DNA from: Gammaproteobacteria bacterium
Lineage (GTDB): Bacteria; Pseudomonadota; Gammaproteobacteria; JAUZRS01
Assembly: GCA_030949385.1 (NCBI GenBank)
Contig: JAUZSP010000006.1
Location: 64,121-128,120 of the forward strand
DNA: 64,000 bases
Reading direction: 5' to 3'
Each line of letters starts with the position of its first letter. The first letter of the stretch is position 1. The notes beneath the pieces were generated by a model. The model was not told the origin of the DNA and searched no databases. It saw nothing but the letters and a program-made list of their open reading frames with translations. Position numbers and translations under genes: made by a program. Shown piece by piece: positions 7,905-41,611 of this stretch.

Positions 7905-8639
7905 TTAGGTTGGGGTGTTGGTGCGCAGTTGTGCCACAAACAGGCTGGTGGCTCCGGCCACCGAGACCGGCATGGCGATTAAATTAACAAAAGGCAAGGT
8001 GGTAAAAAAGAGCGCACTGCTGCCAAACGTGAGTGACATCAGACGCTGTTTTTTTAAGGCAGCACGCTGTTGTTTAAAGTCGATATTGTGGTTGCCCATC
8101 GGGTAGTCGGCGTACTCCAGTGTCAGCATCCAGGCGCTGAAAATAAACCAGACAAAGGGGGCAATGAGATTGACCCCAGGGATTAAAAACAGCAGTAAAA
8201 TGGGCAGCATACGCAGCAAAATATAGATCAGTTTTTTTATCTCACCGACAACGCTCTCTACAATCAGAGTGACTAAATTTTGTCCTTCGGAAGGCGGTTT
8301 TCTGCCTGTGAGGTGATACTCCACCTGTTCTGATAACAGGGCATTAAAGGGTGCGGCGACTAGATTGGCAAACAGAATAAAAACGTAACTGCTGATCAAC
8401 AGAAGGCTAATGGCAAACAGCCCCCAAATCAGGGAGCGTAACCACTCGATTTGCAACCAACTGGGCAATAGGCTTTCAACCCAGCCGCTGAGGTATTCGG
8501 AACCTGACCAAATCATCCATGAGAAGAGCAATACGTTAATCAGCAAGGGGATAATGACATAAGGCCGAACACTCGGCTTGGTGATGAGGCTAAAACCACG
8601 CATAAAATGTCCAAAACCTGAAAGGCTGCCGCTGAGCAT
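7905..8639 (-). CDS. cysZ: Sulfate transporter CysZ (EI24-like membrane protein)
   Basis: 244-aa polytopic membrane protein. The N-terminus GFSLITKPSVRPYVIIPLLINVLLF parallels E. coli CysZ. Confidence 0.65.
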   Translation of the reverse strand: MLSGSLSGFGHFMRGFSLITKPSVRPYVIIPLLINVLLFSWMIWSGSEYLSGWVESLLPSWLQIEWLRSLIWGLFAISLLLISSYVFILFANLVAAPFNALLSEQVEYHLTGRKPPSEGQNLVTLIVESVVGEIKKLIYILLRMLPILLLFLIPGVNLIAPFVWFIFSAWMLTLEYADYPMGNHNIDFKQQRAALKKQRLMSLTFGSSALFFTTLPFVNLIAMPVSVAGATSLFVAQLRTNTPT

Positions 8640-10022: not shown

Positions 10023-11261
10023 TTATAGGATCAGCATGGCCGCCACGGTCAGTGCCAGTAGGGCGATGATGCCGATTAAGATGGGGGTGAGATTTTTATT
10101 CTGTACGCCATTGCCGTTATTTGCCGCTGTGTTTGTTTTGGCTCGGTTGTTGAGCGCGGTTTTAAAGGTTTCAATCTCTTTGAAGCGTCTCATGCCTTGC
10201 GGTTGCAGTGCCTTGTCAATGGCATCGCAAAAGTGTTGGTTTAGATCGCTGCGTACGTTGTGTAGCGGAACGGCGATCTCTCTGGGTGGTGAGCCGGTGG
10301 CCATTTCATAAGCAATGGCTGCTAGAGAGTATTGATCGCTTTGCAGGGTGGCTGTTGAGGCATTGAGTCTCTGTTCGGGGGCTTTATAAAAAAGGGCTTT
10401 TTTGCTTGAACTGCTGGAGTTGATGCGGGCAAAACCGGACAGCTTGCTGTTGTTATGCACATCCAGCCAGATGTTTTTCGGGCTGATGTCACCGTGACTG
10501 CCCTGCTGGTGGACGTAACTGAGTGCGTCACAGAGGGGGTTGATGATCTCCAGTACTTCATTTTCTTGAAAGGGACTGTTCTGCTTTTGGCGTTGTGCGA
10601 TCAGTTTGCGCAGGCTTTTACCCTGCGATACTTCCATGCTGGCGTAGGTTAAATTTTGTTCGTGCTGAGCATCATAGATGTGCACTATGTTTTCATGTTG
10701 CAGTTCACTGGCGCGTTGAGCACTGTGAAAAAAGCTGACTTTGTCGCCGTCACTGACGTTGGGGTTCAAGACTCTGATGGCGATGTTTTCTCCGCGCCTG
10801 CTGTCACGCGCCAGATACAACTCGGATACTCGATCCTGGGAGAGAAAGGCTTTAATGCTGTAACGTTGGTAAGCCAATGTTTGCCCAACGGTAAGGTTTT
10901 TTCCAGCCGACTTTACGCTCGCTTTTTGTGTGCGTCGTTGAGTCGCGGGGGGCTGATTTTCGGTTAGGACAAAATCGAGTTTATGTGCGCGTTTAGGGCG
11001 CTTTTTGGGTGTGTGTTTTGTGTCTGTGCGTTGGCGGCGAATGTTGGCCAGAGCTTCGGCAATGTCGGGAGAGTCTCCGATGATGGTCTCGTCCAGATCT
11101 AGGCTGCTTTCTGCTGCTGGAGCGATTTTTCGGCTCGTTTTAGGTTGTGCTTTTCCATGGCGTATGTTGTTAAGAGCCGCTTCCAAATCTTGTGATTGTT
11201 GGCCAATAAGGGTTTCATCTAACTCTAAATCGATGTCTCCCTGTTTTGAGATTTTGTGCAT
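10023..11261 (-). CDS. Tail-anchored protein with a degenerate Ser/Thr protein-kinase-like domain
   Basis: 412 aa. Two N-terminal copies of a roughly 25-aa LDLDETxIGxxxxDxxEALxNIRxxR repeat. A kinase-like core with several degenerate motifs: no GxGxxG loop, VAIK lysine replaced (IAIRVL), HGD in place of HRD, SGFAR in place of DFG; the APE motif is retained. A single C-terminal TM helix (ILIGIIALLALTVAAMLIL). Confidence 0.6.
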   Translation of the reverse strand: MHKISKQGDIDLELDETLIGQQSQDLEAALNNIRHGKAQPKTSRKIAPAAESSLDLDETIIGDSPDIAEALANIRRQRTDTKHTPKKRPKRAHKLDFVLTENQPPATQRRTQKASVKSAGKNLTVGQTLAYQRYSIKAFLSQDRVSELYLARDSRRGENIAIRVLNPNVSDGDKVSFFHSAQRASELQHENIVHIYDAQHEQNLTYASMEVSQGKSLRKLIAQRQKQNSPFQENEVLEIINPLCDALSYVHQQGSHGDISPKNIWLDVHNNSKLSGFARINSSSSSKKALFYKAPEQRLNASTATLQSDQYSLAAIAYEMATGSPPREIAVPLHNVRSDLNQHFCDAIDKALQPQGMRRFKEIETFKTALNNRAKTNTAANNGNGVQNKNLTPILIGIIALLALTVAAMLIL

Positions 11262-12629: not shown

Positions 12630-14558
12630 CTAAGCGGCGTTTGAGGTGAGGCTTTTTTTCATTTTATAGAGCAGTTGATTGAACTCTTTATTGCGCTGTT
12701 GCCGAGCGTTTGAGAATGCAAGGCTGTCTTGTAACAGGCTTTCTAGGGTCTGCTTTTCCAGTTCGCGGAATTTGTTAAGGATGAGGGTGCTCTGTTGGCT
12801 GGGTTGTTCAGTCAGGCTGCTGGCGCGGCTGAGGGTGTGTTGCAGCCAGCTTTCAGCCCATTGGTAGAAGGTTTCTTTGTGGCTGCTGTTTTCCAGCGCA
12901 AAGAGGCCTTTTTCCAGCTCAAGTTGCAGGGTGTGGGTCAGTTCGGTGCGTTTGATTTCCAGATCCAGTTGTTCAGCGTGTTTGCCGCTGCCGTTGAGGT
13001 CACACGCTTGGTGGATTTGTAAGCGTTCGATGGTGAGCAGGTGTTGCATCTGGTCTCGATGGGATTGCAGGGCGGTGAAGAGGGGGGCGGCTGCGTCGCA
13101 ATGCAGTTGTTCGTTTAAGAGCAGCTCCATCAGCGTTTGTAGTTTGGTTTCCAGTTTGGCGTGAAAATCGAGCCATTCTTGTTGCCAGACGGTTGTGAGG
13201 TCATGGTCGATCAGTTCCTCTTGGCAACGCTGTTGAAAATCGGGCAGGTGCTGGGTTTGACGCTGTTGGCTCTGTTTTAACCAGGCTTGATGCTGTTCGA
13301 TGAGCAGTGTGACGCTGTTTTGGTGTTGGCTGTACCAGTCGATTTTTTGCCGTTGTTCATCGATCAATTGAATGCTGTAATCGGCGACCACTTCAAATCT
13401 TGGGCAAGGTTGCTGTTGCAGTTCATAAAGAGCATTCAGTGGGTTTTTTTCGATCTGTTGCAGTTTGTGCTGTAGCTGAGTGACATCGTCTTGCAGTGCG
13501 GCCAATTTTTTTTCTGTGCTGTGCAGTTTAAAATCAAGGTGTTGCTGTAAAAAACGTTGTCGTGGGGCGCAGTCGTCGGGCAGTTCTGCGGGTGCTTGTT
13601 GCAGTTGTTGGTTGATGTGGTGCAGTTCTGCGAAGAGTTGGGGGTGATCTGTTTGTGCGCTTAAAAGATCGTTGTTTAAGTCATTCAGCCAGCGTTGCAA
13701 ACCTGCTGCGTAGGCGCTGGGGGTTGCGTCAATTTCGGTGCTGGAGTAGTGCTGTTTGCGTTCGCTGTGGTTGAGGCCGTTGAAAGGGGTGGTGTTGTTG
13801 ATGTCTTCGATCTGCTGTTCAAGTTGATCCTGTTGTTGTTCCAATTGAAATATCTGCATGCATTGCTGATAGGTTTGCTGGAGTTGTTCGGTTTTTTCGC
13901 CTTCAAATTCCAGCTGCCACTGTTGCTCGGTAAAAAACATGAGTCGTTTTTGGGTGTAGGTTTCTACAGCCTCTTTAGATTGATCGTGCTCTTGTGGTGG
14001 AGTGAAATTTAGATCGGCGAAGGCAAGATGACAGAGAAAGAGATAAGGGAGGTCGATTGCTAGTGGGTTGTCTGTTGTGAAGTTTGTGATATCCATATAG
14101 CCCGTTTCGGTAACGAGGTGAGAGTAAGATTGACCGTTTTTTTGTTGGAGTCTGGGGTCATCACTGATTAAAAAAGTCTTCGTCAAAAAAGGCAGTGTTT
14201 TATCTTCTAATGCAAAGCGCAGTTGTGCGGCGGTAGGAAGTTGCCATGTATCGCGGTTATCTAGGGTGATTGTTTTCAGATTAGTTTGGTGTGGCTGTTT
14301 TTCTATGTAGGCCTTTTCCAGTTCAGGCATATTATGTTTCTTTAAATTAGGCCAAAGCAGACCTCTGTGGCTGTCAAAAATAATGTCAGGGTGGTTGCCT
14401 ATGAACCACCAGCGTTGCTCGTGAATGCGTTCTAGCAGTGATTCGAGGTTGTCGTCGTCAATGTCGTTGAGATTGTCCAGCGTGTTTTTGATTTCAGCGA
14501 GCTGTTGTTGCAATTGATTTTTTTGAGTTTTGTTCGGCTGGGATGGGCTGGATGACAC
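12630..14558 (-). CDS. Large Q-rich coiled-coil hypothetical protein
   Basis: 642 aa with no recognisable catalytic motifs. Extended heptad-like Q/L/E-rich regions. Confidence 0.6.
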   Translation of the reverse strand: MSSSPSQPNKTQKNQLQQQLAEIKNTLDNLNDIDDDNLESLLERIHEQRWWFIGNHPDIIFDSHRGLLWPNLKKHNMPELEKAYIEKQPHQTNLKTITLDNRDTWQLPTAAQLRFALEDKTLPFLTKTFLISDDPRLQQKNGQSYSHLVTETGYMDITNFTTDNPLAIDLPYLFLCHLAFADLNFTPPQEHDQSKEAVETYTQKRLMFFTEQQWQLEFEGEKTEQLQQTYQQCMQIFQLEQQQDQLEQQIEDINNTTPFNGLNHSERKQHYSSTEIDATPSAYAAGLQRWLNDLNNDLLSAQTDHPQLFAELHHINQQLQQAPAELPDDCAPRQRFLQQHLDFKLHSTEKKLAALQDDVTQLQHKLQQIEKNPLNALYELQQQPCPRFEVVADYSIQLIDEQRQKIDWYSQHQNSVTLLIEQHQAWLKQSQQRQTQHLPDFQQRCQEELIDHDLTTVWQQEWLDFHAKLETKLQTLMELLLNEQLHCDAAAPLFTALQSHRDQMQHLLTIERLQIHQACDLNGSGKHAEQLDLEIKRTELTHTLQLELEKGLFALENSSHKETFYQWAESWLQHTLSRASSLTEQPSQQSTLILNKFRELEKQTLESLLQDSLAFSNARQQRNKEFNQLLYKMKKSLTSNAA

Positions 14559-16406: not shown

Positions 16407-16551
16407 GTTTTAGCACACTGGTCATCAAACGGAAAGAGTGCGGTATTTTATTTGTGAATGACGTACAATTTGCGCGCCTAGATTGGCTCCTTTTTGTTGC
16501 TGTCAAAGCCGTCCACCTTCCATTTAAAACCGCTGGGGAAAAGTGTAACGA

Positions 16552-18014
16552 TGCGTATTTTATTTGTTGCCAGTGAAGTTCATCCGTTGATTAAAACCGG
16601 TGGTTTGGCCGATGTTGCCGGTCATTTGCCTCCGGCGCTGCTGGCGCAAGGTGAAGAGATTCGGATTGTGATGCCCGCCTATCGTGCCGCACTGCAAGGA
16701 TTAGAGCAGATTGAGGTGGTGGCGGAGTTGTTTCTATTGGGAGCAGCCCAGCCGGTAGAAATTTTGCAAAGCATCTTGCCGGGTACGGCGGTGCCGATCT
16801 ATTTGGTTCGTTGTCCACAATATTTTGATCGTGAGGGCGGTCCTTATGCCGACAGCGAGGGCAATGATTGGACGGACAACGCGGCTCGTTTTACCCTTTT
16901 TGCCCGTGCAGTGGTTGAGTTGGCGCAAAATCGAGCGGCTTTGGAATGGCAGCCGGATTTGGTGCATTGCAATGATTGGCAGACAGGGTTGGTGCCCGCG
17001 CTGCTCAAATGTGAGGCCGTTGCGCCGAAAACGTTGTTTACCATTCATAATTTGGCTTATCAGGGATTGTTCTCTTGGCAGAGCTTCCAATCGTTGCAGT
17101 TACCCCGTGATCTTTGGGGGTGGAGGCAATGGAGTTTTACGGCAACTTTTCTTTTATGAAAGGCGGCTTGGTTTATGCCGATCACCTCTCTACGGTTAGT
17201 CCTCAATACGCTGAGGAAATTTTAACCCCAGAGTACGGTTACGGTTTGGAAGGGTTGCTGAGCAGTCGTGCTGGATGATCTGTCGGGCATTTTGAATGGA
17301 GTGGAGTATGAGATATGGAACCCAGAGCACGATGAAGCCATTGCGGTTAATTACGGTGTGGATAGTTTGGCGCTGAAGTCCGAAAACAAACGTGCGTTGC
17401 AGCGTGAGTACCGTCTTGATGAAGAGCCAGATAAACCGCTGATTGTCTATGTGGGGCGTTTGGCGGATCAAAAAGGGGTGGATCTGATTCTGTCGGGATT
17501 GCCGTCGATGGTGGAGCACTTGGGAATGCAGGTGCTGCTGCTGGGCAGCGGTCGGCGTGACCTTGAAGAGGCGTTGTGGGTCGTGGGGGATCGTTATCCT
17601 GGACAAGTGGCGACCTATGTGGGTTTCAGTGAAGATCGAGTGCATCGCATTAAAGCAGGAGCGGATATGTTCCTGATGCCGTCTCGGTTTGAGCCTTGCG
17701 GTCTGAATCAGATTTACAGCTTGCGTTACGGGGCAGTGCCGATTGTGCGAGCGGTCGGCGGGTTGGTGGACACGGTGGTGGATGCGTCTCCTGATGCAGT
17801 GGAGAAGGGCGTTGCAACGGGTTTTCACTTCGGCTCTGCCAATGCCGGTGATATGTTGTATTGCGTGGGACGCGCGTGCGAGCTTTACCGTGATAAACCA
17901 AATTTATGGCGTAACTTGATGCTGAATGGCATGCAGCAGGATTTCAGTTGGCAGCAGGGTGCCAAGCATTATTGCGATTTGTATCGCCGGATTGTGAGTC
18001 AGAAAAAAGCATAA
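16552..18014 (+). pseudogene. glgA: Glycogen synthase glgA interrupted by two frameshifts (or assembly indels)
   Basis: N-terminus MRILFVASEVHPLIKTGGLADV (KTGGL motif) in one frame. The middle segment [31 protein letters not shown] is in a second frame, after the G5 run at 17116-17120. The C-terminal part (..LSGILNG..EPCGLNQIY..) is in a third frame from about 17271. Confidence 0.75.
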
Positions 18015-18113: not shown

Positions 18114-18911
18114 TTGTTTTTTTGCGTTAAGACCAAGGGGTTTGCAGTGAATTTATTTCAGCTTCCGTTACTTGTTTTTTTGATCGTGGCTTTGCCGTTG
18201 ATGAGTGCTTGTTCCACCACCTCTTCCAGCAGTGGCGCACGCAGTTTAGATGCTAAGGCATTGAGTGGTTTGACCGCCGATGCCAAAGCGGGAAGAGAGC
18301 GTATTAAGCAAGATGCCCTATTGGCTCAGGTGAGTTCCAATGGCTCATTAACGGTGGACAGCAGCACCGCGCAGCTGTTGGCAAAAGCCGCTAGCAGCAA
18401 GAGAGAGATGTACCGTATTGGGGTAGATGATCAAATTCAGATCACGGTCAGAGGCAACCCTGACTTGGATGTGACGGTGCCGGTGCGCCCCGATGGAAAA
18501 ATATCCATGCCGTTGGTAGGAGATATTTTGGTGGGAGGGCGAACCCCTAAAGAGGTCTCTAAAATCATCTCAAATTATTTGGCAAAGTATGTGAGAAACC
18601 CCAGTGCAACGGTGATTATGACCCAGCTGCGCAGTCATGAATATCTGCGCCGAGTGAGAATCACCGGCGCTGTAACCAGCCCTTCTTCCATGCCCTACCG
18701 TGGTGGCATGACGGTATTGGATGCGGTGCTGGCCTCCGGTGGGGTGAATGAATTTGCGGCTCCAAACAAAACCAAGCTGTATCGTAAAATTGACGGTGTG
18801 CAGCACGTCAGTGAGATTCATCTTGATGATATTTTGAAAAAAGGCGAAATGGCGAGCAACATTGCCTTGGCTCCGGGAGACATTGTGACCATCCCTGAAC
18901 GACTTTTTTAA
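18114..18911 (+). CDS. Periplasmic polysaccharide export protein (Wza/EpsA-like, Poly_export + SLBB domains), lipoprotein
   Basis: Lipobox LPLMSAC; the likely start is the GTG at 18146. Poly_export-like core (..RIGVDDQIQITV..DGKISMPLVGDILVGG..). Confidence 0.7.
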   Translation: MFFCVKTKGFAVNLFQLPLLVFLIVALPLMSACSTTSSSSGARSLDAKALSGLTADAKAGRERIKQDALLAQVSSNGSLTVDSSTAQLLAKAASSKREMYRIGVDDQIQITVRGNPDLDVTVPVRPDGKISMPLVGDILVGGRTPKEVSKIISNYLAKYVRNPSATVIMTQLRSHEYLRRVRITGAVTSPSSMPYRGGMTVLDAVLASGGVNEFAAPNKTKLYRKIDGVQHVSEIHLDDILKKGEMASNIALAPGDIVTIPERLF

Positions 18912-19471
18912 GCTTCTCGAACGTAAGCGTATTGCCAAGGCGTTTGGTTGAGCGCGTGTAGTGCATCCAGTAACGCTTGGCTAGGGATGGCTTCGTGAGG
19001 GTGAATGTTTAAAACTTCGATGACACTTCTACCGAAGGCAGCCTGCTTTCGCCAGTTCCATTCCCACGGGGCTGAGGTTTTTTCACAGACGCTGCATGAC
19101 CACCGTTGAGTTTGATCTTTGTGCCACTGCTGTAGATCCGTTTGCCATGTTGGATGGGCTTTTCGGCAGTGTGGGCAGCGAGGTGCTGTGCTCATGCTAT
19201 CCACGGCGCTGTAATAGTGATTTTTTTGTTGCGGCAGATGAATCGCGCAGTAGGTTTGATCGGCTTTCGCTTCTTCTGGTTGCAGGGCGATAAACGGAGA
19301 GCAGCCAACAAAGGTCAGTTGTTCCATAAATCGTTCACCTGAGCGGTAGTGATCGTCTCTGTTTGGCAGAGGATCGGCCATGAGTTGCAGCTGTTGCAGT
19401 GTCCCGATTAAGACGTTGTTGGAGGCTTGCCACTCGATGTGGTTGGAAAACAGGATCAGTTTGGCATTCAT
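18908..19471 (-). CDS. Hypothetical protein with two CxxC pairs (zinc-ribbon-like)
   Basis: 187 aa containing CPHC...CSVC. Its start overlaps the stop of the upstream REC-domain gene (ATGA), which suggests translational coupling. Confidence 0.5.
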   Translation of the reverse strand: MNAKLILFSNHIEWQASNNVLIGTLQQLQLMADPLPNRDDHYRSGERFMEQLTFVGCSPFIALQPEEAKADQTYCAIHLPQQKNHYYSAVDSMSTAPRCPHCRKAHPTWQTDLQQWHKDQTQRWSCSVCEKTSAPWEWNWRKQAAFGRSVIEVLNIHPHEAIPSQALLDALHALNQTPWQYAYVREA

Positions 19472-20931
19472 GGTTTAGTGCTGATGAGTGTGAACTCGAC
19501 TCGGTTATTGAGAGCAGCGATGTTATTCCATTGTCCTGCGCTTGTTAAGCGGGCTGGGTCGGGATAGGCCGCCCGTGGCGCATTATTGCCAATGGGCTGT
19601 ATTTCCAATGTGACTAGGCCGCCTTGCAGCAGAGGAGAGTGGTTAACAAATTCTGTAAACGCGGGGCTTTGACGTTGACTGAGTTTGATTGATTCCGAGA
19701 GGCTCTGTTGTTGAAAGTCACACTGCTCCATTTTCATGTTTTCTGCAGCGAGAATTTGTTTTCCTTGTTTGTTTTTGCGTAGGCAAAATTCACCGGTATG
19801 AACTTTTAGTATGATCACACCTTGAAAGCGTAAAATGGCCAAGCGTGAGAGTAAGGTTTTGAGCTGTTGTAAACGTGGGTCGTTCAGTGCTAACTCAGCG
19901 TATTGATAAGCACCGTTTTGGTTCAGAGACCACTGAAAGGTTTGTAGCCAGCGTTCGTTGAGAGTTTTGAGTTCTTCGATTTCGTTGGTCAGTAACGTAG
20001 TTTCATTGTCTGTGCTGATGTCTGTTTTGCTGGCAAGAGGGTGTTGTAAAACCTCATTGAGCAGCTTTTCTACGCGAACTGTTTCGGCGTTATTGTGTTG
20101 TGCCAGCTGATAAAACCAGAGCGCTGGGGCGATCATAAGAAGAATCAAAAGCAAACCTTTGAAGAGGTTTTTACTGCTTTTGTTGTTGCTTATCTTGTGA
20201 GAGCCGGTTTTTAACATAGGCGCTTGCACCAGTTCATCGACTACTTTGCGGGCGATGGTTTGGCTGCTCTCTTGAATCTCTTGGCGAATTTTTTGTCGTT
20301 CTTCCACCATTAGACGAGCAAACCAAGCTCTTAATTGGCGTTGCCGTTGTGCTTCGGCGTTGTCGTTATTGCTGTTTTTAGAGGATGTTGCAACGGGTCT
20401 GGCATTGTTGCTTTTCAGTTCGGCATGACGTTTCTCAAAGGGAGTGGCGCTGGGTTTTGGAATGGGGACTTTGCTTTGGTTTTGATGGGTGGGTTGTTTT
20501 TGTACTGGCGAGTGTCCTTTGTTATTCTCCAGCAGTCCTAAACGGTTAAGGGTTTTTCCCAGCTCGGCATGGTAGATCTGTTTGGGCAGCACGCCAATCG
20601 CGCCCAAGGCACGTGCCTGACTTAGATAGACTTCTCCCTCCTTGGAGGTGTACATCATAATGGGGATTTTAGCGGTTCTAGGGTCGTTTTTGATTGCTTT
20701 TATGGCTTGAAAACCGTCCATACCCGGCATCATGTGATCCATAAAGATCACATCGGGTCGGGTGTGGCAGAGGTAGCTGAGAGCCGCTTCGGCAGACTCA
20801 GCGGTGTCAACCTGTAAACCTTGTTTTTCCAACTGTTTACGCAGTGCCAGACGCGCCGATTTGGCATCGTCAACCACCAGAGCGAGTTTCTCGACTTGAT
20901 TGACTGTTTTATGGATGGGAGGTTGGCTCAT
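19468..20931 (-). CDS. Response-regulator receiver (REC) domain protein with a central TM helix and a C-terminal extracytoplasmic domain of unknown function
   Basis: The N-terminal roughly 120 aa has REC motifs (VVDD...phospho-acceptor D in VIFMDHMMPGMDG ... K). A basic/Q-rich linker follows, then the hydrophobic helix LLLILLMIAPALWFY, then a roughly 210-aa C-terminal domain with no known motif. Confidence 0.65.
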   Translation of the reverse strand: MSQPPIHKTVNQVEKLALVVDDAKSARLALRKQLEKQGLQVDTAESAEAALSYLCHTRPDVIFMDHMMPGMDGFQAIKAIKNDPRTAKIPIMMYTSKEGEVYLSQARALGAIGVLPKQIYHAELGKTLNRLGLLENNKGHSPVQKQPTHQNQSKVPIPKPSATPFEKRHAELKSNNARPVATSSKNSNNDNAEAQRQRQLRAWFARLMVEERQKIRQEIQESSQTIARKVVDELVQAPMLKTGSHKISNNKSSKNLFKGLLLILLMIAPALWFYQLAQHNNAETVRVEKLLNEVLQHPLASKTDISTDNETTLLTNEIEELKTLNERWLQTFQWSLNQNGAYQYAELALNDPRLQQLKTLLSRLAILRFQGVIILKVHTGEFCLRKNKQGKQILAAENMKMEQCDFQQQSLSESIKLSQRQSPAFTEFVNHSPLLQGGLVTLEIQPIGNNAPRAAYPDPARLTSAGQWNNIAALNNRVEFTLISTKP

Positions 20932-21957: not shown

Positions 21958-23184
21958 GTGATGGAATTTGATCTTTTCAGTCAGATGTTGGTCTGGGCGT
22001 TTGTTTTGGCGGTCATTTTAGGTGTGGTGGCGAATAAAACCAGTTTTTGCACCATGGGTGCGGTATCCGATTGGGTCAATATGGGTGATAAAAGCCGCAT
22101 GCGCTCTTGGTTGTTGGCCATTGCAACCGCCATTATGGCGGTCATGTTGATGGAGTGGCTGGAGCTGGTGGATATGTCCTTGACCACCAGTAATGAAACC
22201 TCTAATCCTCCTTATCGGGTCAGTAACTTTGTTTGGTTGCGTTACCTTGTCGGTGGGTTGATTTTTGGTGTTGGTATGACCTTGGGCAGCGGTTGTGGCA
22301 ATAAAACCTTGCTGCGTTTGGGAGCCGGTAACGGCAAGTCTATTGTGGTGCTGTTGGCGATCAGTGCCGCAGCCTCTTTAATGATGTTCACCAGCATTGA
22401 TTACGATCTGTTTTTGAGCTGGATGACCCCTTTGGCGGTTAACTTTACTGATTACGGCATCCATGATCAGTCTGTGGGTTCCATTGTTGAAGGTGTTGTG
22501 GGGGCTGAGCCGGATTCTCAATTAAATCTAATCGTTGCTGCCCTGATTGGGCTGGGTCTGTTTTGCTGTATTTTTAAATCCGCAGAGTTTCGTGCTAACC
22601 GAGAGTTGATTGTGGCTGGGTTGTTGGTTGGGTTGTTGGTTGCATTGGCGTGGTGGGTGACGGCAGGTGCGTTAGGACAGCAGTTGTTAGAAGAAGCTGA
22701 TTTTATGGATGTGCGTCCTTATGCGTTGGGTGCCCAGTCTTTTACTTTTGTGGCACCAACAGCACACGCCTATCAATACATCGAACAGGGTTTTGATCGC
22801 AGTTATGTGAGCTTTGGTTTGGTGGCGGCTTTGGGCGTCATCTGTGGTTCTTTTGTCTACGCGCTGTTTTCTGGTACCTTCCGTTTTGAGTGGTTTGTGA
22901 ACTGGAAAGATTTTCGTATGCACTTGGTGGGCGGTCTGTTAATGGGCGTTGGTGGAGTGTTGGCCATGGGCTGTACCATTGGTCAGGCGGTCACGGGTGC
23001 ATCGACTCTGGCTTTGGGGTCTTTTGTGGCCTTTGCCGCCATCGTGCTTGGCAGTGCGTTGAGTATGAAGTACCAGTATTACAAAATGTTATACGATGAT
23101 GCGACGGTTTTGGATGCGTTTGTAACCGCTCTGGTAGAGTTGCGTTTATTGCCGAAAAAACTGCGACGTTTGGAGGCTTTATAG
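21958..23184 (+). CDS. YeeE/YedE family sulfur-compound (thiosulfate) transporter
   Basis: 408-aa polytopic membrane protein with two-fold internal repeats carrying the conserved Cys motifs (GSGCG ... GCTIGQ). Confidence 0.7.
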   Translation: MMEFDLFSQMLVWAFVLAVILGVVANKTSFCTMGAVSDWVNMGDKSRMRSWLLAIATAIMAVMLMEWLELVDMSLTTSNETSNPPYRVSNFVWLRYLVGGLIFGVGMTLGSGCGNKTLLRLGAGNGKSIVVLLAISAAASLMMFTSIDYDLFLSWMTPLAVNFTDYGIHDQSVGSIVEGVVGAEPDSQLNLIVAALIGLGLFCCIFKSAEFRANRELIVAGLLVGLLVALAWWVTAGALGQQLLEEADFMDVRPYALGAQSFTFVAPTAHAYQYIEQGFDRSYVSFGLVAALGVICGSFVYALFSGTFRFEWFVNWKDFRMHLVGGLLMGVGGVLAMGCTIGQAVTGASTLALGSFVAFAAIVLGSALSMKYQYYKMLYDDATVLDAFVTALVELRLLPKKLRRLEAL

Positions 23185-23287: not shown

Positions 23288-23363
23288 GGGCCGTTAGCTC
23301 AGTTGGTAGAGCATCTGACTTTTAATTAGGTGGTCGAAGGTTCGAATCCTTCACGTCCCACCA
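23288..23363 (+). tRNA. tRNA-Lys (anticodon UUU)
   Basis: Cloverleaf by eye: GGGCCGTTAGCTCAGTTGGTAGAGCATCTGACTTTTAATTAGGTGGTCGAAGGTTCGAATCCTTCACGTCCCACCA, very close to E. coli tRNA-Lys. Anticodon loop CTTTTAA. Confidence 0.9.
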
Positions 23364-23731: not shown

Positions 23732-24799
23732 ATGGCCAGCATTGAGAAGCGCACCAGCAAAGAGGGAGTGGTCTCCTATCGGGTCAAAGTGAGGTTGAAA
23801 GGCTACCCAATACAAACGGCCTCTTTTGAACGGCGTACCGATGCCAAAAAGTGGGCGCAGCAAACAGAGGTCGCCATTAGGGAAGGGCGACACTTCAAAA
23901 CCCGAGAGGCCAAACGGCATACTTTTAATGAGCTGGTGAAGCGGTACATAAAAGAGGTGGTGCCACGCAAGCCCAAAGCGGGGGCATACGATCACAGTTA
24001 CCAACTCAGGTGGTGGGCTGATCAAATCGGGGATTGTGTGTTGGCGGACGTTACAGCGGCTTTACTGACAGAGACGCGGGACAAACTGGCCAATATACCC
24101 ACAGTGAATGGGCAGAGGGCAGCCGCTACGGTGAACCGCTATCTTGCCTCTGCAAGCCATGCGTTTACGGTTGCGGTGAAAGAGTGGGGATGGCTGGAAG
24201 ATTCGCCCATGCGGAACGTGAGTAAGTTTAAGGAGCCACGGGGACGGGTGCGCTATTTGAGTGAAGAAGAGCGGCCTAGGTTTCTTGCTGCTTGCCGAGA
24301 GAGCAGTAATCCATACCTGTACCCCGTTGTTGTTCTGGCACTCTCCACCGGAGCGAGAAAGATGGAGATATGTTCCCTTTCTTGGGCGGCCATCGACCTT
24401 AAGCGTGATGCTCCACAGATCGTTTTACATGAAACAAAGAACGGTGAGCGGCGTGTTTTGCCCCTAACAGGCCATGCTTTGGAGCTGGTGCGTGATTTGG
24501 CCAAAGTTCGGCGCATTGATACCCCGTTGCTTTTTCCGAGCTTGAAGAATCCCAGTAAGCCGATGGGCATTAGAGCGCCGTTTCTCAGAGCGTTGGCAAA
24601 GGCTGAAATAGAAGATTTTCACTTCCATGATTTGAGACACAGCGCGGCCAGTTATCTGGCCATGGACGGTGCCAGCATGGCGGAGATAGCGGAGGTTCTA
24701 GGGCATAAAACCCTACAGATGGTGAAACGCTACAGCCACCTTTCAGATGCACACACGGCCAGTGTGGTGGCTTCCATGAATGCCAAGATTTTTGGATAA
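23732..24799 (+). CDS. int: Tyrosine recombinase / phage-type integrase
   Basis: 355 aa. The C-terminal catalytic region has ..HDLRHSAASYLAMDG..LGHKT..MVKRYSH (R...HxxR...Y). The gene sits immediately 3' of the tRNA. Confidence 0.85.
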   Translation: MASIEKRTSKEGVVSYRVKVRLKGYPIQTASFERRTDAKKWAQQTEVAIREGRHFKTREAKRHTFNELVKRYIKEVVPRKPKAGAYDHSYQLRWWADQIGDCVLADVTAALLTETRDKLANIPTVNGQRAAATVNRYLASASHAFTVAVKEWGWLEDSPMRNVSKFKEPRGRVRYLSEEERPRFLAACRESSNPYLYPVVVLALSTGARKMEICSLSWAAIDLKRDAPQIVLHETKNGERRVLPLTGHALELVRDLAKVRRIDTPLLFPSLKNPSKPMGIRAPFLRALAKAEIEDFHFHDLRHSAASYLAMDGASMAEIAEVLGHKTLQMVKRYSHLSDAHTASVVASMNAKIFG

Positions 24800-26762: not shown

Positions 26763-27005
26763 ATGCTTAACTTATCCCCTCCCAATCCGTCTACCCGTTG
26801 CAGTCACGCGCCTGTTGAGGTGGTGGTTTATACGGTCTGTGTTACGTCTCTTTCTCGTTCTGGTGGGCGTACCACGCGCCCTGTATCGCGTTATTTCTCT
26901 TCCCGTATTGGCGCGTTTACCTCCTTTGATCCAGACCCCGACTACTTGGCGTGGTATCACGATCTGCTTTTGCTGGATTCCGCTTTGGCAGGGGGTGGCC
27001 TGTGA
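26763..27005 (+). CDS. Small ORF that may be translationally coupled to the primase gene
   Basis: 80-aa ORF whose TGA (27003-27005) overlaps a candidate GTG start of the primase frame (ctGTGAag). No motif recognised. Confidence 0.25.
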   Translation: MLNLSPPNPSTRCSHAPVEVVVYTVCVTSLSRSGGRTTRPVSRYFSSRIGAFTSFDPDPDYLAWYHDLLLLDSALAGGGL

Positions 27006-29173
27006 AGCAGAAAATAGACTTTCAAGCCATCAACCAATCGGCCATAAACAATGCGGTAAGTGTGCTTAACCATTATCTTCCTGATGGGACAAGCAGTGGC
27101 GGTGAGTACACGGCGTTAAACCCAACACGGGAAGACAGTAAAAAGGGCAGCTTTTCGGTTAACACCCAAAGTGGCCGGTGGTCTGACTTTGCCACAGAGG
27201 ATAAAGGTGGGGATCTGATAAGCCTGATAGCCTACCTAAACGGCACTAAACAGGGTGCAGCGGCCAAAGAGTTGTCCCAGTTTTTGGGGCTGTCAGAGGT
27301 CAACCACAGCAGCCAAAAGAAAACCGCCACGGTGGCGCAATCGAGCAAGCACCCCCCCGCTGAATGGGCACCTTGTTTGCCGGTTCCCAACGATGCACCC
27401 GCACCTCATGAGGAACATTCCCGTTTTGGTAAACCGTCAGGCCGTTGGGTCTATCGGGATGAACAAGGGGCGGTGCTGTTTTATATGTACCGTTTTGAGC
27501 AAGAGGGCAAAAAGAAGAGCTACGCGCCGTTGAGTTACGGCAATTATGGCGCGGGGTGTTTGCACTGGAAGTGGAAGGGTATTCCAGCACCCCGCCCCCT
27601 CTATCATCTTGACCAACTGGCAGCCAAGCCAAAGGCCAAGGTGGTGATCTGTGAGGGTGAAAAAGCAGCGGATGCCGCTCAATACCTTTTGCCGGATTGG
27701 GTCGCCGTTACCCCACCCAATGGGGCGCAATCACCGGATAAGGCCAATTGGTCGCCCTTAAAAGGTCGGGATGTGATGATTTGGCCAGACAATGACAAAG
27801 CCGGTGCCGCGTTTGCGGATCGGGTCAAGGCGCTGGTGGAGGGTGTCGGGGTTAAGTCGGTCGCTTTGTTGGTGGTGCCGTTTGCCTTTGGTCTCGATGG
27901 TGACGGCCTTAAGCCCGTGGCCGGTGATGGCTTTGCAGAGAAGTGGGACGCGGCGGACGCAGAGGCCGAAGGCTGGCAGCCAATGCACCTTAAACAGTTG
28001 ATCCAAAAAGCGGAGTGTGTGCGGGTGACTGCCCTCTCTGTCACGGTGAAGAGGGAAGGCAGAAAGAGACCGATTAAGGGTTCAACCTTTGGCCATAACT
28101 TCAAAGTGAAAGAGAGCGGTGTGTGGTTTCATCCACCATCAGAAGACCAACAGGACGCACCTAAGCCCATATTGATTTGTGACCGGCTGATGGTGAGTGC
28201 CAGAACACGGGACACGCACGGCGAAAGCCACGGGCGGCTGTTGGAATTTGTAGATTCAGACGGTGTACCGCACCAGTGGGCGATGCCTATGGAGATGCTG
28301 GCCGGTGATGGCTTGGAGGTCAGAAAGCGGTTGATGTCCCAAGGTTTAAGTGTGGCGCAGAGCCGCAAATCACGGGATCTGTTGGGCATGTACATACAGA
28401 CGCAACAACCGAAAGACAAGGCGCTCTGTGTGGATCGTATCGGCTGGCATGGTGGGGCATTTGTTTTGCCTGACAAGGTGCTGGGACAGAAAGAGGGTGA
28501 TCGGGTGTTGTTGCAGGCTCCAAGAAGAGAAGACCCTGTGTTCTCTCAAAAAGGCAGCCTTGCAGAGTGGCGGCAGCAGATAGCGGCGTTGTGTCTGGGC
28601 AATTCACGTTTGCTGTTTGCGGTCAGTTTGGGTTTTGCTGCCAGTGTGTTGAAGCCGTTAATGGAAGAGTCGGGCGGTTTTAATATTCGTGGTGCCAGTT
28701 CTACCGGAAAAAGTACGGCGCTACGGGTGGCGTGCAGTGTGTGGGGTGGAGCCAATCGGATGCAGCGGTGGAGAGCCACCGGTAACGGCCTTGAAGGGGT
28801 GGCCTCGATGCACAACGATACCCTTTTGTGCTTGGATGAATTGGGGCAGGTTGAACCACGGGAAGCGGGTGAAATTGCCTACATGCTGGCCAACGGTGCC
28901 GGTAAGCAGCGCAGCCGAAGGGATGGCAGCAGTGCAGCGGTAAAAGAGTGGCGGCTGTTGTTTCTTTCAGCCGGTGAGGTGGGTTTAGCGGAACAGATGC
29001 GCCAAGGCGGTAAGCGGGTCATGGCCGGTCAAGCGGTGCGAATGGTGGATATTCCAGCGGATGCGGGGCGTGGCTTGGGGTTATTTGAAGACGTTGAACG
29101 GCCACCGTTCTGGCGGCCATCTTTCAAAGGCGTTATCGGCTGCCACCCAAAAGGCTTACGGTACAGCAGGTGA
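26951..29173 (+). CDS. Phage/plasmid primase-helicase: N-terminal zinc-binding-like region, Toprim domain, P-loop (DUF927 / SF3-like) NTPase
   Basis: 740 aa. Toprim motifs (VVICEGEKAAD ... DNDKAG). Walker A GASSTGKST and Walker B LLCLDELG. The protein appears to continue in another frame at 29061-29789, implying a frameshift. Confidence 0.75.
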   Translation: MVSRSAFAGFRFGRGWPVKQKIDFQAINQSAINNAVSVLNHYLPDGTSSGGEYTALNPTREDSKKGSFSVNTQSGRWSDFATEDKGGDLISLIAYLNGTKQGAAAKELSQFLGLSEVNHSSQKKTATVAQSSKHPPAEWAPCLPVPNDAPAPHEEHSRFGKPSGRWVYRDEQGAVLFYMYRFEQEGKKKSYAPLSYGNYGAGCLHWKWKGIPAPRPLYHLDQLAAKPKAKVVICEGEKAADAAQYLLPDWVAVTPPNGAQSPDKANWSPLKGRDVMIWPDNDKAGAAFADRVKALVEGVGVKSVALLVVPFAFGLDGDGLKPVAGDGFAEKWDAADAEAEGWQPMHLKQLIQKAECVRVTALSVTVKREGRKRPIKGSTFGHNFKVKESGVWFHPPSEDQQDAPKPILICDRLMVSARTRDTHGESHGRLLEFVDSDGVPHQWAMPMEMLAGDGLEVRKRLMSQGLSVAQSRKSRDLLGMYIQTQQPKDKALCVDRIGWHGGAFVLPDKVLGQKEGDRVLLQAPRREDPVFSQKGSLAEWRQQIAALCLGNSRLLFAVSLGFAASVLKPLMEESGGFNIRGASSTGKSTALRVACSVWGGANRMQRWRATGNGLEGVASMHNDTLLCLDELGQVEPREAGEIAYMLANGAGKQRSRRDGSSAAVKEWRLLFLSAGEVGLAEQMRQGGKRVMAGQAVRMVDIPADAGRGLGLFEDVERPPFWRPSFKGVIGCHPKGLRYSR

Positions 29174-31071: not shown

Positions 31072-31782
31072 GTGGAGTTATCATGTCTCGTCCAAAAAAA
31101 TCTTCCTAGTTTACCATCGGCAGAAGAGGCTTTATCTGGCAGAGATCAAGCCCTCATTGTTGATGATGCGCATTTTGTGCATGGCCACACTTTAACAGCA
31201 CCTTTTCCTGAGCAGATGCAGCTGGCGATGTTTGGTTTGGGCTGTTTTTGGGGGGCTGAAAAACGCTTTTGGCAAGAGCTCGGTGTGTTCAGTACCGCTG
31301 TGGGTTATGCCGCTGGCCACACTAAAAATCCGACCTATCATGAGGTGTGCAGTGGAGCTACGGCGCACAACGAAGTGGTGCAGGTGGTGTTTGATCCAGA
31401 ACAGCTCTCTTACCAGCGTCTGCTGGAGCTGTTTTGGACGGGGCATAATCCCACTCAAGGTGATCGCCAAGGTAACGATGTGGGTAGCCAATATCGTTCT
31501 GGAATTTACTGTTTTAATGCTGATCAGCAGGCTTTAGCGGAAGCTTCAAAACAGCGTTATCAGGATGCCTTGTCTTCACAGGGGTTGGCTGAAATTACCA
31601 CTGAAATCATTCCAGCACCGCTTTTTTATTATGCAGAGTCCTATCATCAGCAGTACTTGGCAAAAAATCCGCAGGGTTATTGTGGTTTGGGGGGGGTGTG
31701 GCGTCGATTTTCCGCAGTAATACCGTTCAATACTTCGGACAGTTTTAGAGAGAAAAAGATAGGAACCACAGGCGGATTCTGA
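31072..31782 (+). CDS. msrA: Peptide methionine sulfoxide reductase MsrA, with its C-terminus altered by an IS insertion
   Basis: FGLGCFWGAE active-site motif and alignment to E. coli MsrA throughout. The last roughly 19 codons are read from IS sequence starting at 31727. Confidence 0.85.
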   Translation: MELSCLVQKNLPSLPSAEEALSGRDQALIVDDAHFVHGHTLTAPFPEQMQLAMFGLGCFWGAEKRFWQELGVFSTAVGYAAGHTKNPTYHEVCSGATAHNEVVQVVFDPEQLSYQRLLELFWTGHNPTQGDRQGNDVGSQYRSGIYCFNADQQALAEASKQRYQDALSSQGLAEITTEIIPAPLFYYAESYHQQYLAKNPQGYCGLGGVWRRFSAVIPFNTSDSFREKKIGTTGGF

Positions 31783-33046
31783 GAAAATAGAGTTCTCAAA
31801 AAACGACAATCAAAGAAGGCCGCCCGTGGAATCCATAGTAGAATCGGTTTTACTCTCCATGTCCAGTGTTAAAAAACCACAACGTCTTTTTCTCTCAGCT
31901 CTGTTTTCCGCATTGATGGTTTTTCAAGGGAAAGCCACTTTTCGTAATTTGAGTCGTTACAGTTCGTTGCATGAAAAACGTCTGTCGCGTTGGTTTCGAC
32001 GTTCATTTGATTTTGCACAATTCAACAGACGCCTACTTCAAAAAGGGCTGCCACAAAAGCACGATCAAATTGCCGCCATTGATGCCAGCTTTATGAAAAA
32101 AAGTGGTCAGAAAACAGCAGGGTTGGGTTGGTTTTACAACGGCGCTTTGGGGCAAGCCATGGTGGGGTTGGAGTTGTCGTTGGTTTGCCGAATTGATCTT
32201 CAAAGTCGAACCGCTTACGCGCTGGAGGCTCGCCAAACGTTGGACTCGGAACAGAAAGAGGGTGAGAGCCGAGTGGACTGCTACGCGAAACAGGTTTGTG
32301 ACCTTGCCTGTGATCTTCAAGCGCAAGGCATTCGCTACCTTACCGCAGACGCCTACTACAGCAAGGTGAAGTTTGTCGATGCGGTCTGTTCAGATGACTT
32401 ACACCTGATTGGAAAGCTGCGTTCAGATGCCAACCTAAGCTGGTATTTTGAGGGCGAGTACGGTGGCAAAGGACGTCCTAAAACGTACGATGGTAAAGTC
32501 AATTTCCAAACGGAGCTGTCCCGTTTTGATGCGTGTGGCGTAATGGATAAGGGGGTATCGATTTACAGCGCCGTGGTTCACTCGTGTTGTTTCAAACGGA
32601 AAATCCGTGTGGTGCTGCTGCGATGGGAGCAGAAGACAAAAGTCCGTTCGGCTCTGCTGTTTTCTACGGATTCGGAGTTGGCTCCAGAAAAGATTGTCGA
32701 ATATTACACCGCTCGTTTTCAGATTGAATTTTTGTTTCGTGAAGCTAAGCAACATACGGGTTTAATGGATTGCCAAGCGCGTTGCCCAGAGGCCATTCAA
32801 ACTCATATTAATGCCTCGTTCACCGCACTGAATTTATTGAAGCTGGAAGACCGTAAGGACAAGAGCAACCCTGAGCCTTCGGTGATTTCGATTGCCTCGT
32901 GGCGACGTAAGAAATTCAATCAATATTTGATGAAAATACTTTTTGACAAGTTAGGTTTGGAGAGATCTTGTCAAAAAGTCGAGGCGGTTTACCATGAGCT
33001 GAGTGAGTATGGGGCTATTCAGGTTTAAAACTGTCCGAAGTATTGA
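31727..33046 (+). mobile_element. IS701-like insertion sequence (IS4 superfamily), 1320 bp
   Basis: 21-bp perfect terminal inverted repeats TCAATACTTCGGACAGTTTTA (31727-31747 and 33026-33046). A 4-bp direct duplication CCGT at 31723-31726 and 33047-33050. A single transposase ORF. Confidence 0.75.
31826..33028 (+). CDS. DDE transposase (IS701/IS4-like)
   Basis: 400 aa with a DDE_Tnp_1-like organisation (..AIDASFMKKSG.. ... DAYY ... EFLFREAKQHTG). It lies between the inverted repeats. Confidence 0.65.
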   Translation: MESIVESVLLSMSSVKKPQRLFLSALFSALMVFQGKATFRNLSRYSSLHEKRLSRWFRRSFDFAQFNRRLLQKGLPQKHDQIAAIDASFMKKSGQKTAGLGWFYNGALGQAMVGLELSLVCRIDLQSRTAYALEARQTLDSEQKEGESRVDCYAKQVCDLACDLQAQGIRYLTADAYYSKVKFVDAVCSDDLHLIGKLRSDANLSWYFEGEYGGKGRPKTYDGKVNFQTELSRFDACGVMDKGVSIYSAVVHSCCFKRKIRVVLLRWEQKTKVRSALLFSTDSELAPEKIVEYYTARFQIEFLFREAKQHTGLMDCQARCPEAIQTHINASFTALNLLKLEDRKDKSNPEPSVISIASWRRKKFNQYLMKILFDKLGLERSCQKVEAVYHELSEYGAIQV

Positions 33047-33298: not shown

Positions 33299-34078
33299 AT
33301 GGAGTGCGTTTTAATGATTGATGAGGCTTTGGCGTTTCGTCTGGGTCAGGAAAGCCCCGGTTTTTACGGCAAAATTCCCGTTAGGGGTGATTTTGTGTCG
33401 CGCCGCTTGGCGCAGCATTTTGTTGAACCTTGGGATCATTGGTTGCAAGAGTCTTTGCTCTCCAGTCAGGAGCAGTTGGCGGATGACTGGTTGGATGTCT
33501 ACCTGACCAGCCCTGTGTGGCGTTTTGTGATGACCAAAGGGGTCTGTGGTTCTCTGCCGTGGGCGGGAGTGGTGATGCCGAGTGTGGATCGAATGGGGCG
33601 TTATTTTCCTTTCACCCTTGCGACTCCGTTGGCCGAAGGGGTGAATCCGTTTCGAATGATGCAGTCGGGAGGGGCGTGGTACGCACAAGCAGAAACCTTG
33701 GCGCTTTCCAGCCTCCGCGAAGGCTTTGAACTGGAAGAGTTTGACCAGCAATTGAAACGTTTACGAGTGCCGAAAAGTGCCGCTAAAGAGACGGTACACA
33801 ACGGCATAATGGGGGTTTCGTCCGCTTGGCATATCTCATTAGCGGCACCGTCGAGTTTGGCGGGTGCTTGTTCTGAGTTGGCAAATCAGGCTCTGGAAGA
33901 GCTTTATTTTGGCTACAGCCTCTGGTGGAGCCACGGTTCCGAGCAGGTGGAACCTTCTTTTTTAGTATGTCAGGGATTACCCCCGACAACAGGCTTTGCA
34001 GCCATGTTGGGAGGAGACTGGGAAAATGCAGATTGGCAGAAGAGAAGCGTTACCTCTGCCCACGGTGATGGATTTTGA
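33299..34078 (+). CDS. tagF: TagF (DUF2094) type VI secretion-associated protein
   Basis: 259 aa. GFYGKIPVRGDFVSRRLAQHFVEPWDHWLQESL is close to the P. aeruginosa TagF N-terminus (WYGKLPSLGDFVSRRLP..FV.PWD.WLQ). ..SVDRMGRYFPF.. is also conserved. Confidence 0.7.
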   Translation: MECVLMIDEALAFRLGQESPGFYGKIPVRGDFVSRRLAQHFVEPWDHWLQESLLSSQEQLADDWLDVYLTSPVWRFVMTKGVCGSLPWAGVVMPSVDRMGRYFPFTLATPLAEGVNPFRMMQSGGAWYAQAETLALSSLREGFELEEFDQQLKRLRVPKSAAKETVHNGIMGVSSAWHISLAAPSSLAGACSELANQALEELYFGYSLWWSHGSEQVEPSFLVCQGLPPTTGFAAMLGGDWENADWQKRSVTSAHGDGF

Positions 34079-41300: not shown

Positions 41301-41611
41301 TCAGGAGAGTTTGGCCTTGTTTGATCTGCTGAACAAACCGGAGTTAAGTAAAAAAAGAGATCAAGACCATCAAGCGGGTGGCAACGGAGCTGTTAAAAGA
41401 TGTGAAAAAGGAGCTGGTCACGATTCAGCACTGGCAAGAGAAAGGGCGCGCTCGGGCGGCGATCAAACAGGGTATTTATGACCACCTGTACGATGACAAA
41501 ACGGGCTTGCCAGAGAGCTACGAAGTGGAGGAGATTGGTTTGTTAGCCGATGAACTGTTCAGTCATATTTATCGTGTGTACCCCACTTTACCCTCACCGG
41601 TTTATGGTTAA
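38389..41611 (+). pseudogene. hsdR: Type I R-M endonuclease subunit HsdR, frameshifted at an A7 tract near the C-terminus
   Basis: The 1030-aa ORF carries SF2 helicase motifs (..TQGSGKS.., DEAH in ITDEAHRTQYG, ..QAIARANR..). The final roughly 75 aa (..VATELLKDVKKELVTIQHWQEK..) are in the -1 frame as ORF 41378-41611. Removing one A from AAAAAAA at 41350-41356 restores ..LSKKEIKTIKRVATELL... Confidence 0.8.

Follow-up and report, generated by a model that had tools for sequence, protein, structure and literature searches.

A widespread family of orphan, single-pass inner-membrane response regulators with a terminal domain of predicted OmpA-like fold

The stretch of DNA analysed here (the window) comprises 64,000 nucleotides of a contig of a Gammaproteobacteria bacterium (JAUZSP010000006.1, positions 64,121 to 128,120, assembly GCA_030949385.1). 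On its minus strand, at 19468..20931, lies an open reading frame (ORF) with an ATG start, coding for a protein of 487 aa (NCBI MDQ7075027.1) and named ORF A here. ORF A belongs to a widespread family, not annotated before, of orphan response regulators that span the inner membrane once and comprise, in this order, a receiver (REC) domain, a linker, a juxtamembrane segment that is probably helical, a single transmembrane (TM) helix, a stalk and a terminal domain, X; the family is referred to below as REC–TM–X. The sole label of ORF A in its NCBI record is 'response regulator', and in public annotation (PGAP, IMG) the members of the family appear as 'response regulator' or 'CheY-like chemotaxis protein'; with such a label only, the family is invisible to domain-based censuses.

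The REC domain occupies residues 18-127 of ORF A (20551..20880, minus strand) and is a bona fide member of Pfam PF00072, above the gathering threshold (89 bits, cutoff 30.2). The receiver pocket is complete, with the acidic pair D21/D22, the phospho-acceptor D65, T95 and K117, and the domain appears, judging from the residues present, competent for phosphorylation. An earlier note on the window, made from the sequence alone, had described a 487-aa protein with a canonical receiver, a phospho-acceptor Asp and no DNA-binding or enzymatic output, and both parts of this description are borne out: outside REC no DNA-binding or enzymatic family is matched in Pfam and NCBIfam scans, which also detected no Hpt, HisKA, HAMP, GGDEF or EAL domain in ORF A.

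REC and the TM helix are separated by 128 residues (128-255) rich in N, K, S, and Q. The first part of this region, residues 128-195 (20347..20550, minus strand), is a low-complexity linker of the same composition, whose sequence and length vary across the family; the second, residues 196-255 (20167..20346, minus strand), is a predicted cytoplasmic juxtamembrane segment. Residues ~196-235 (RQLRAWFARLMVEERQKIRQEIQE...) are moderately conserved, while the Lys/Ser-rich tail before the TM helix is not. Both P0005, a distant relative, and P0019-P0028 retain the juxtamembrane segment, whose hydrophobic periodicity is conserved at L207, M208, I215, and I219 among 63 distinct full-length family members, the set over which residue conservation was counted throughout; residues ~196-235 are probably helical. 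The TM helix itself, assigned by hydrophobicity, comprises residues 256-277 (LFKGLLLILLMIAPALWFYQLA; 20101..20166, minus strand) and is the only hydrophobic segment in the protein (Kyte-Doolittle value 2.03 over 19 residues). It contains neither D nor E, is preceded by four Lys/Arg in 15 residues and followed by two. Across the family exactly one such segment is present (63/63), at a conserved position, with a median Kyte-Doolittle value of 2.42 and with D or E inside it in 1/63. The basic, Q-rich linker, the single TM helix and the C-terminal part of about 210 aa described previously are thus found at the positions assigned to them, and the TM assignment holds for all 63 members examined.

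The 210 residues that follow the TM helix consist of a stalk of ~60 aa and of domain X of ~150 aa. The stalk, residues 278-340 (19912..20100, minus strand), is predicted to be periplasmic and helical. In the AlphaFold2 model of residues 278-487, built from a 25-sequence alignment, it forms helices at fragment residues 2-19 and 30-62, the second with a predicted local distance difference test (pLDDT) score of 84-92; the whole model has a pLDDT of 84.9 and a predicted template modelling score of 0.75. Domain X, residues 341-487 (19471..19911, minus strand), is predicted to adopt an OmpA-like alpha/beta fold with an insertion of ~35 residues. Sequence searches of Pfam, NCBIfam and PDB gave no match for X, and the scans of family libraries yielded only sub-threshold noise, in keeping with its earlier description as being of unknown function.

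In the model, the long helix is followed by an alpha/beta domain with elements ordered beta-alpha-beta-[insert]-alpha-beta-alpha-beta. When this model was compared with PDB by Foldseek, the top 47 matches were all OmpA/MotB/Pal-type domains or complexes containing them, namely Pal, TagL, MotB, PomB, MotS, ZorB, OprF, OmpA, AbOmpA, YfiB, and the TssL extension, with a probability of up to 0.99, a template modelling score on the target of 0.42-0.58, 10-16% identity and a weak best E-value of 2.7e-3. On the predicted model, X has the alpha/beta sandwich of beta-alpha-beta-alpha-beta-beta type that defines the OmpA-like fold, and its tail NNRVEF is colinear with the OmpA-like NRRVE, as is the order of secondary structure elements. 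Three motifs are characteristic of X, H.G(E/D)FC, (R)QS..FA.F, and the tail WN.IAA.NNRVEF, and G371, C383, C404, Q421, F425, W468, N469, A472, N475, and R477 are invariant. No cytoplasmic output domain matches the C-terminal region, the predicted fold being of the periplasmic OmpA/MotB/Pal type.

The family was delimited by several searches. A word-index search with the non-REC part of ORF A returned only five clusters, one of them containing a protein of the same length and architecture at 32% identity, and a profile of the periplasmic part added 20 proteins, none annotated for the X region. A scan of metagenome contigs with the pattern WNx[IV]A[AG][QLA]N[NH]R showed the family to be common, with 394 confirmed relatives from this single motif, of which 80 loci were kept. 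Every complete X-bearing ORF in these loci (69/69) has REC fused N-terminally and a hydrophobic segment (Kyte-Doolittle value 1.5-3.0) between REC and X; the other 11 loci are cut by contig ends. The same fused architecture is found in P0005 and P0016, and the usual length of the proteins is 440-460 aa. The relatives of ORF A show 32-74% identity, and those of ORF B, the gene that overlaps its 3' end, 33-94%, and so both are real genes and not chance ORFs. In the REC domain, D21/D22 are conserved in 62/63 members and D65, T95, and K117 in 63/63. The C-terminal part has exactly two Cys residues in 63/63, and the cytoplasmic part has none in 46/63. A family-specific REC hidden Markov model scores distant members at 1e-45 to 1e-65, from which it follows that REC and X have evolved together as a single protein; the REC–TM–X arrangement is obligatory in the family. 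The unusual topology proposed for ORF A, a receiver whose output is extracytoplasmic, is supported in that it is the architecture of the whole family.

Several apparent exceptions to the fusion proved to be of no consequence. In the high-GC clade the domains are likewise fused, REC and X of L115 being split by one in-frame TAA (1344-1346) where the relatives have Gln, which represents a nonsense mutation or a sequencing error; the split gene in L011 lies in an assembly with several other split genes, and the gene in L114 is cut by the contig end. Only L010, where the gene for a 179-aa REC protein and that for TM-X share a TAATG stop/start overlap (7999-8003), may represent a true division of the family architecture into two genes.

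REC–TM–X is an orphan response regulator. No histidine kinase gene is adjacent to it in the window or in its relatives, none is found among the larger ORFs of the window, and no conserved operon partner was detected among the loci compared.

To our knowledge, the outputs of response regulators, whether DNA-binding, RNA-binding, enzymatic, protein-binding or none, all act in the cytoplasm. For ORF A we infer that the N-terminus lies in the cytoplasm and the C-terminus in the periplasm (N-in, C-out), where C383 and C404 would form a disulfide, because of the Cys pattern, the single TM helix and the need of the receiver for a cytoplasmic phosphodonor. The reading that we prefer, if tentatively and with somewhat less than even confidence, is signalling from the inside outwards, in which phosphorylation of D65 controls a periplasmic, envelope-binding domain, probably via dimerisation. 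A kinase would phosphorylate D65, and the phosphorylated REC domains would dimerise and bring two TM–stalk–X chains together, upon which the paired X domains could change from a state able to bind an envelope ligand to one unable to do so, or back. Peptidoglycan would be the simplest candidate for this ligand, a periplasmic protein the alternative. Dimerisation is the usual consequence of REC phosphorylation, and for a single-pass protein it is the simplest route by which information could cross the membrane.

The further claim, that these proteins of marine and sediment Gammaproteobacteria are the first two-component response regulators with an output outside the cytoplasm, acting as a phosphorylation-controlled envelope tether of the inner membrane to the cell wall or in periplasmic ligand capture, is a possibility that we would put forward with reserve. 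If true, they would form a new, extracytoplasmic output class sending a phosphorylation signal outward, comparable to LapD for cyclic di-GMP (c-di-GMP), and a phosphorelay could alter envelope mechanics or anchoring directly, without gene expression. No description of a REC–TM–OmpA-like regulator was found in the literature searched, outside which most subscription journals lie, so that an earlier mention is possible; matches in the Desulfovibrio literature were rejected as a precedent, the proteins there being separate.

A number of observations weigh against the preferred reading. The linker between REC and the TM helix is long, of low complexity and varies from 41 to 239 residues across the family, which argues against a rigid allosteric link and is just as compatible with a REC domain that is simply tethered. 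Across the family, only a weak positive-inside bias is seen (2.2 vs 2.0 Lys/Arg). The OmpA-like family model PF00691 does not match X even at E<=10, while Pal, P6, OmpA-C, and MotB-C score 49-89 bits and so are valid controls, and profile searches of PDB sequences with 5- and 25-sequence alignments of X retrieved no OmpA-like chain. An hhalign comparison of the 25-sequence X profile with an OmpA-like profile gave a colinear, full-domain alignment with P=7.7e-4, which is not counted as evidence because the broader 63-sequence profile gave P=0.039 and an unrelated control P=0.019 (range of the controls 0.019-0.47); further OmpA domains sought in the fetched loci were not found. The candidate counterparts of the Asp/Arg pair with which OmpA binds diaminopimelate are kept in only about 75% of the members (E/D381, 47/63; R420, 48/63), in an alignment that is unreliable at the residue level, and the ligand-binding loop of the OmpA fold is replaced in X by the ~35-residue insertion with the Cys pair. 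With this loop replaced and the candidate pair conserved no further than this, peptidoglycan binding is uncertain, and the ligand may be another one. Domain X is accordingly described as 'OmpA-like in predicted fold' and is not filed as a member of the OmpA family (PF00691).

The looseness of the linker also speaks for a second explanation, in which the OmpA-like domain is a static wall anchor, for example at the pole or septum, and the tethered REC is the working part, serving as a localised phosphate sink or a phosphorylation-dependent docking site with no signal crossing the membrane. A long, variable, low-complexity linker is expected of a tether, the REC domain is to all appearances fully competent for phosphorylation, and no neighbour of this orphan gene relates to an output. 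A gene for a cytoskeletal protein, bactofilin, lies convergently downstream in 14 loci, and in the clade of the window the translationally coupled, cytoplasmic zinc-ribbon protein ORF B could dock on the receiver. The conserved juxtamembrane segment and the periplasmic stalk, however, suggest more than a passive tether, and we consider such an anchor a serious rival, possible but rather less likely than not. The co-evolution of REC and X is expected under this explanation and under the preferred, outward-signalling one alike, and does not discriminate between them.

It may also be supposed that the signal runs in the opposite direction, the periplasmic domain sensing the state of the wall or envelope (peptidoglycan fragments, the width of the periplasm or a periplasmic protein being candidate inputs) and altering phosphorylation or dephosphorylation of REC, which would make the protein a modulated phosphate sink. 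X is predicted to share its fold with periplasmic domains that bind ligands, the remodelled binding loop with its invariant Cys pair suggests a family-specific ligand, and an orphan REC with all residues for phosphorylation suits such a role. However, a single-pass protein with a long disordered linker offers a poor path from the periplasm to REC, ORF A has neither an Hpt nor a HisKA domain, and REC is not known to take a signal from a fused sensor without a kinase, all of which makes a sensor of this kind unlikely.

ORF B (18908..19471, minus strand; NCBI MDQ7075026.1, 'hypothetical protein') codes for 187 aa and carries the two CxxC pairs ascribed to it by the earlier note, C99xxC102 and C126xxC129, which lie, according to the alignment, in a zinc-ribbon core of residues 97-131 (19079..19183, minus strand). 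The four Cys residues are invariant in 59 aligned family members. An exhaustive profile search assigned 633 clusters (at 50% identity) to the family, of which 234 have E<=1e-30, and nearly all members are stand-alone proteins of 180-200 aa. The signature of the family comprises, besides the zinc-ribbon Cys residues, an invariant (F/M)(L/V)GC(S/A)P, (N/D)WR, and EA(V/I)P...W.Y.Y; the first of these motifs contributes a fifth invariant Cys, and EA(V/I)P is near-invariant. No Pfam or NCBIfam model covers the family, only sub-threshold generic zinc-ribbon matches being found, and a profile search of PDB returned generic zinc fingers only. The structure model is poor (pLDDT 59.7, with residues 35-92 below 50), and a fold search with it is meaningless (best E 0.53). 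In P0124 (461 aa), the one apparent fusion, the N-terminus looks like nonsense sequence, and the start was probably called wrongly. By its sequence ORF B appears to be a cytoplasmic zinc-ribbon protein of a separate, widespread, uncharacterised family of ~185 aa; together with X, this defines two domain families absent from Pfam and NCBIfam.

The stop codon of ORF A overlaps the start of ORF B by ATGA (19468-19471, minus strand), as had been noticed before. No Shine-Dalgarno-like sequence precedes ORF B, no terminator-like site was found between the two genes on the minus strand, and a promoter and terminator scan gave nothing above shuffled expectation. The overlap and the lack of a Shine-Dalgarno sequence suggest that ORF B is co-transcribed with and translationally coupled to ORF A, in the clade of the window only. 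The overlap is kept in L005, L006, and L012, which make up with the window four close lineages (67-94% identity). Since these are fully syntenic (QueC / A B / Poly_export / GlgA / PGI), the pairing counts as a single event. A third alternative rests on it, namely that the zinc-ribbon protein is an effector or co-factor of the receiver and that the two regulate the adjacent polysaccharide export gene. The co-expression to which these features point speaks for this, as do the persistence of the overlap in the four lineages and the finding that a distant partner homolog, P0009 in L004, also follows a REC protein, an atypical OmpR-like one.

Against such a module, no ORF B homolog occurs in the stretch fetched around any of 84 distant REC–TM–X loci (80 from metagenomes and L001, L009, L010, and L011), and REC–TM–X is absent from ~20 distant loci of the ORF B family, which come from gammaproteobacterial metagenome-assembled genomes (MAGs), including Thiomargarita, Thiogranum, and Thiotrichaceae. 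The neighbours at these loci are heterogeneous, with a metallo-beta-lactamase-fold hydrolase in 5-6 of them and genes for glutamate dehydrogenase, a CPA2 antiporter, an iron-containing alcohol dehydrogenase, EpmA-like proteins, and methyl-accepting chemotaxis proteins in others. The partner family is moreover the larger one and nearly always stands alone, in Thiomargarita its gene directly follows queC, and Poly_export does not recur beside REC–TM–X. The two genes thus do not co-occur across independent lineages, the proposal that their operon is a functional module is not supported, the coupled pairing being confined to the syntenic clade of the window, and joint control of export by the pair is improbable. 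ORF B is a local, clade-specific companion and not a conserved part of the REC–TM–X mechanism.

In the Thiomargarita MAG (L022:5998-6603) the gene of the ORF B family follows queC after 51 nt, in the same orientation, and in the clade of the window queC is the divergent neighbour of the REC–TM–X and ORF B pair. This adjacency suggests that the queC–partner arrangement is the older one and that the REC–TM–X gene was a later arrival, inserted beside the ancestral queC–partner locus in the clade of the window. In L004 (1753-2999), the protein followed directly by P0009 is an OmpR-like one of 216 aa, with a weak REC match of 36.8 bits and, where beta-3 ends (…DIALVFFRD…), seemingly no canonical acceptor Asp. 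A general linkage of REC genes with the ORF B family was rejected, L004 being the only locus with a REC neighbour among ~20 lineages.

That ORF A is not a membrane protein at all, its hydrophobic stretch being a buried helix and its C-terminal domain a cytoplasmic output, is favoured only by the weak positive-inside bias of the family and is highly improbable in view of the strongly hydrophobic segment of ~20 residues at the same position in every member, the two invariant C-terminal Cys residues next to a largely Cys-free cytoplasmic part, and a predicted fold matching domains that are periplasmic in all the characterised cases listed.

Turning to known systems with which an outward-signalling REC–TM–X protein may be compared, the predicted layout of ORF A, N-in with one TM helix, a periplasmic helical linker, and an OmpA-like C-terminus, is that of peptidoglycan-binding proteins anchored in the inner membrane, namely the stator subunits MotB/PomB/MotS, TagL of the type VI secretion system, and ZorB of Zorya, which are also the top structural matches of the X model. 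The periplasmic domain of MotB/PomB dimerises and must extend to reach the wall, and this conformationally gated wall binding would make MotB/PomB the nearest mechanistic analogue of a switchable tether. In contrast to the MotB-type proteins, X of ORF A has no PF00691 match and carries an insertion with a Cys pair in place of the ligand-binding loop, the N-terminus is a full REC domain instead of a short tail, and there is no protonatable Asp in the TM helix. A gene for a MotA/PomA/ZorA/TolQ/ExbB-type partner was found neither in the neighbourhood in the window nor among the recurrent neighbours of 86 loci, and with no TM Asp and no MotA-like neighbour a stator or energiser subunit of the MotB/TolR/ExbD type is ruled out. 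A PADLOC scan, prompted by the presence of ZorB among the fold matches, gave only weak matches to REC, and a defence system was rejected.

LapD is an inside-out receptor of c-di-GMP that controls the periplasmic protein LapG (PMC3032553, PMC3032545). On the preferred reading it resembles ORF A, by analogy and not by homology, in that a cytoplasmic signal-receiving module is coupled across the membrane to a periplasmic output. The signal in ORF A would be phosphorylation of REC instead of c-di-GMP bound to a degenerate EAL domain, and ORF A has one TM helix where LapD has two, an unrelated periplasmic fold, and no HAMP, GGDEF or EAL domain. With the CheY-like proteins and PorX of the type IX secretion system, which are orphan response regulators of a single domain or with an atypical output, ORF A shares a canonical REC, the lack of a DNA-binding output and a gene located away from that of a kinase. 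However, these proteins are soluble and cytoplasmic, whereas proteins of the ORF A family are inserted in the membrane and are predicted to have over 200 residues outside the cytoplasm, and the NCBIfam PorX model matches only the REC domain of ORF A, and weakly (43 bits vs a cutoff of 300). The polar hub proteins HubP and FimV, finally, which are anchored to peptidoglycan, also have a wall-binding domain in the periplasm and one TM helix, with low-complexity sequence leading to a cytoplasmic region for interactions, and the explanation of ORF A as an anchored receiver follows the logic of such landmark proteins. They bind the wall by LysM and not by an OmpA-like fold and have no REC domain, and no sequence relationship to ORF A was found in the Pfam and NCBIfam scans.

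The gene convergent to the pair (18114..18911, plus strand) codes for a Poly_export/SLBB protein and overlaps the 3' end of ORF B by 4 nt with its own 3' end. It matches TIGR03027, the model of the XrtA/PEP-CTERM exopolysaccharide exporter, with 191 bits against a cutoff of 180, which agrees with the Wza-like export gene recognised in the earlier note. The suggestion made there that the pair may regulate envelope or polysaccharide functions stands in its first part only: the link with the exporter is confined to the clade of the window, and what makes an envelope function plausible is the OmpA-like fold and not the neighbourhood. A PrsK/PrsR-type regulon of the PEP-CTERM/XrtA kind was rejected, ORF A having neither a sigma-54 AAA+ nor a helix-turn-helix domain and the exporter being the only match to such a system. 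The other neighbours of the pair are glgA, pgi, and queC, the genes directly adjacent to ORF A being those for QueC and for the zinc-ribbon protein.

Across the 86 loci, over which recurrent neighbours were counted, REC–TM–X is accompanied by a phosphoenolpyruvate carboxylase gene upstream in 19 loci, by genes for a PAS-GGDEF-EAL protein in nine, GshA in nine, and saccharopine dehydrogenase in five, all of which look like lineage-level synteny. The convergent bactofilin gene (PF04519, 84 bits), present in 14 loci ~47 nt downstream (e.g., L042:3657-4094), may reflect lineage synteny too, yet for a protein anchored to the wall the proximity of a cytoskeletal gene is suggestive.

Some other features of the window deserve mention. 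The glgA gene (16551-18014, plus strand) is colinear with the intact 489-aa GlgA of L005 at 76% identity but is interrupted by three in-frame stops at residues ~203-236, where the sequence reads as if it were out of frame. Either glgA is a pseudogene here, in which frameshifts compensate each other, or the assembly is in error. The ORF at 12630-14558 (minus strand), located between pgi and an unannotated ORF of 188 aa, codes for a protein of 642 aa that is very rich in Gln and has no Pfam, NCBIfam or PADLOC match, and a Ser/Thr kinase gene is located at 10023-11261. A tRNA-Lys gene (23288-23363) is followed by genes for a tyrosine integrase (23732-24799) and a DUF927 primase-like protein (26951-29173, plus strand). 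Since the sulfur-transport gene and msrA adjoin in L005 and L006, an integrated element of ~7-8 kb seems to be present in the window at tRNA-Lys, between yeeE (21958-23184) and msrA (31072-31782). Further on, all on the plus strand, are a DDE transposase gene (31826-33028), a TagF_N and PP2C phosphatase pair (33299-34859), and a complete type I restriction-modification system comprising hsdM (35235-37208), hsdS (37205-38392), and hsdR (38389-41481).

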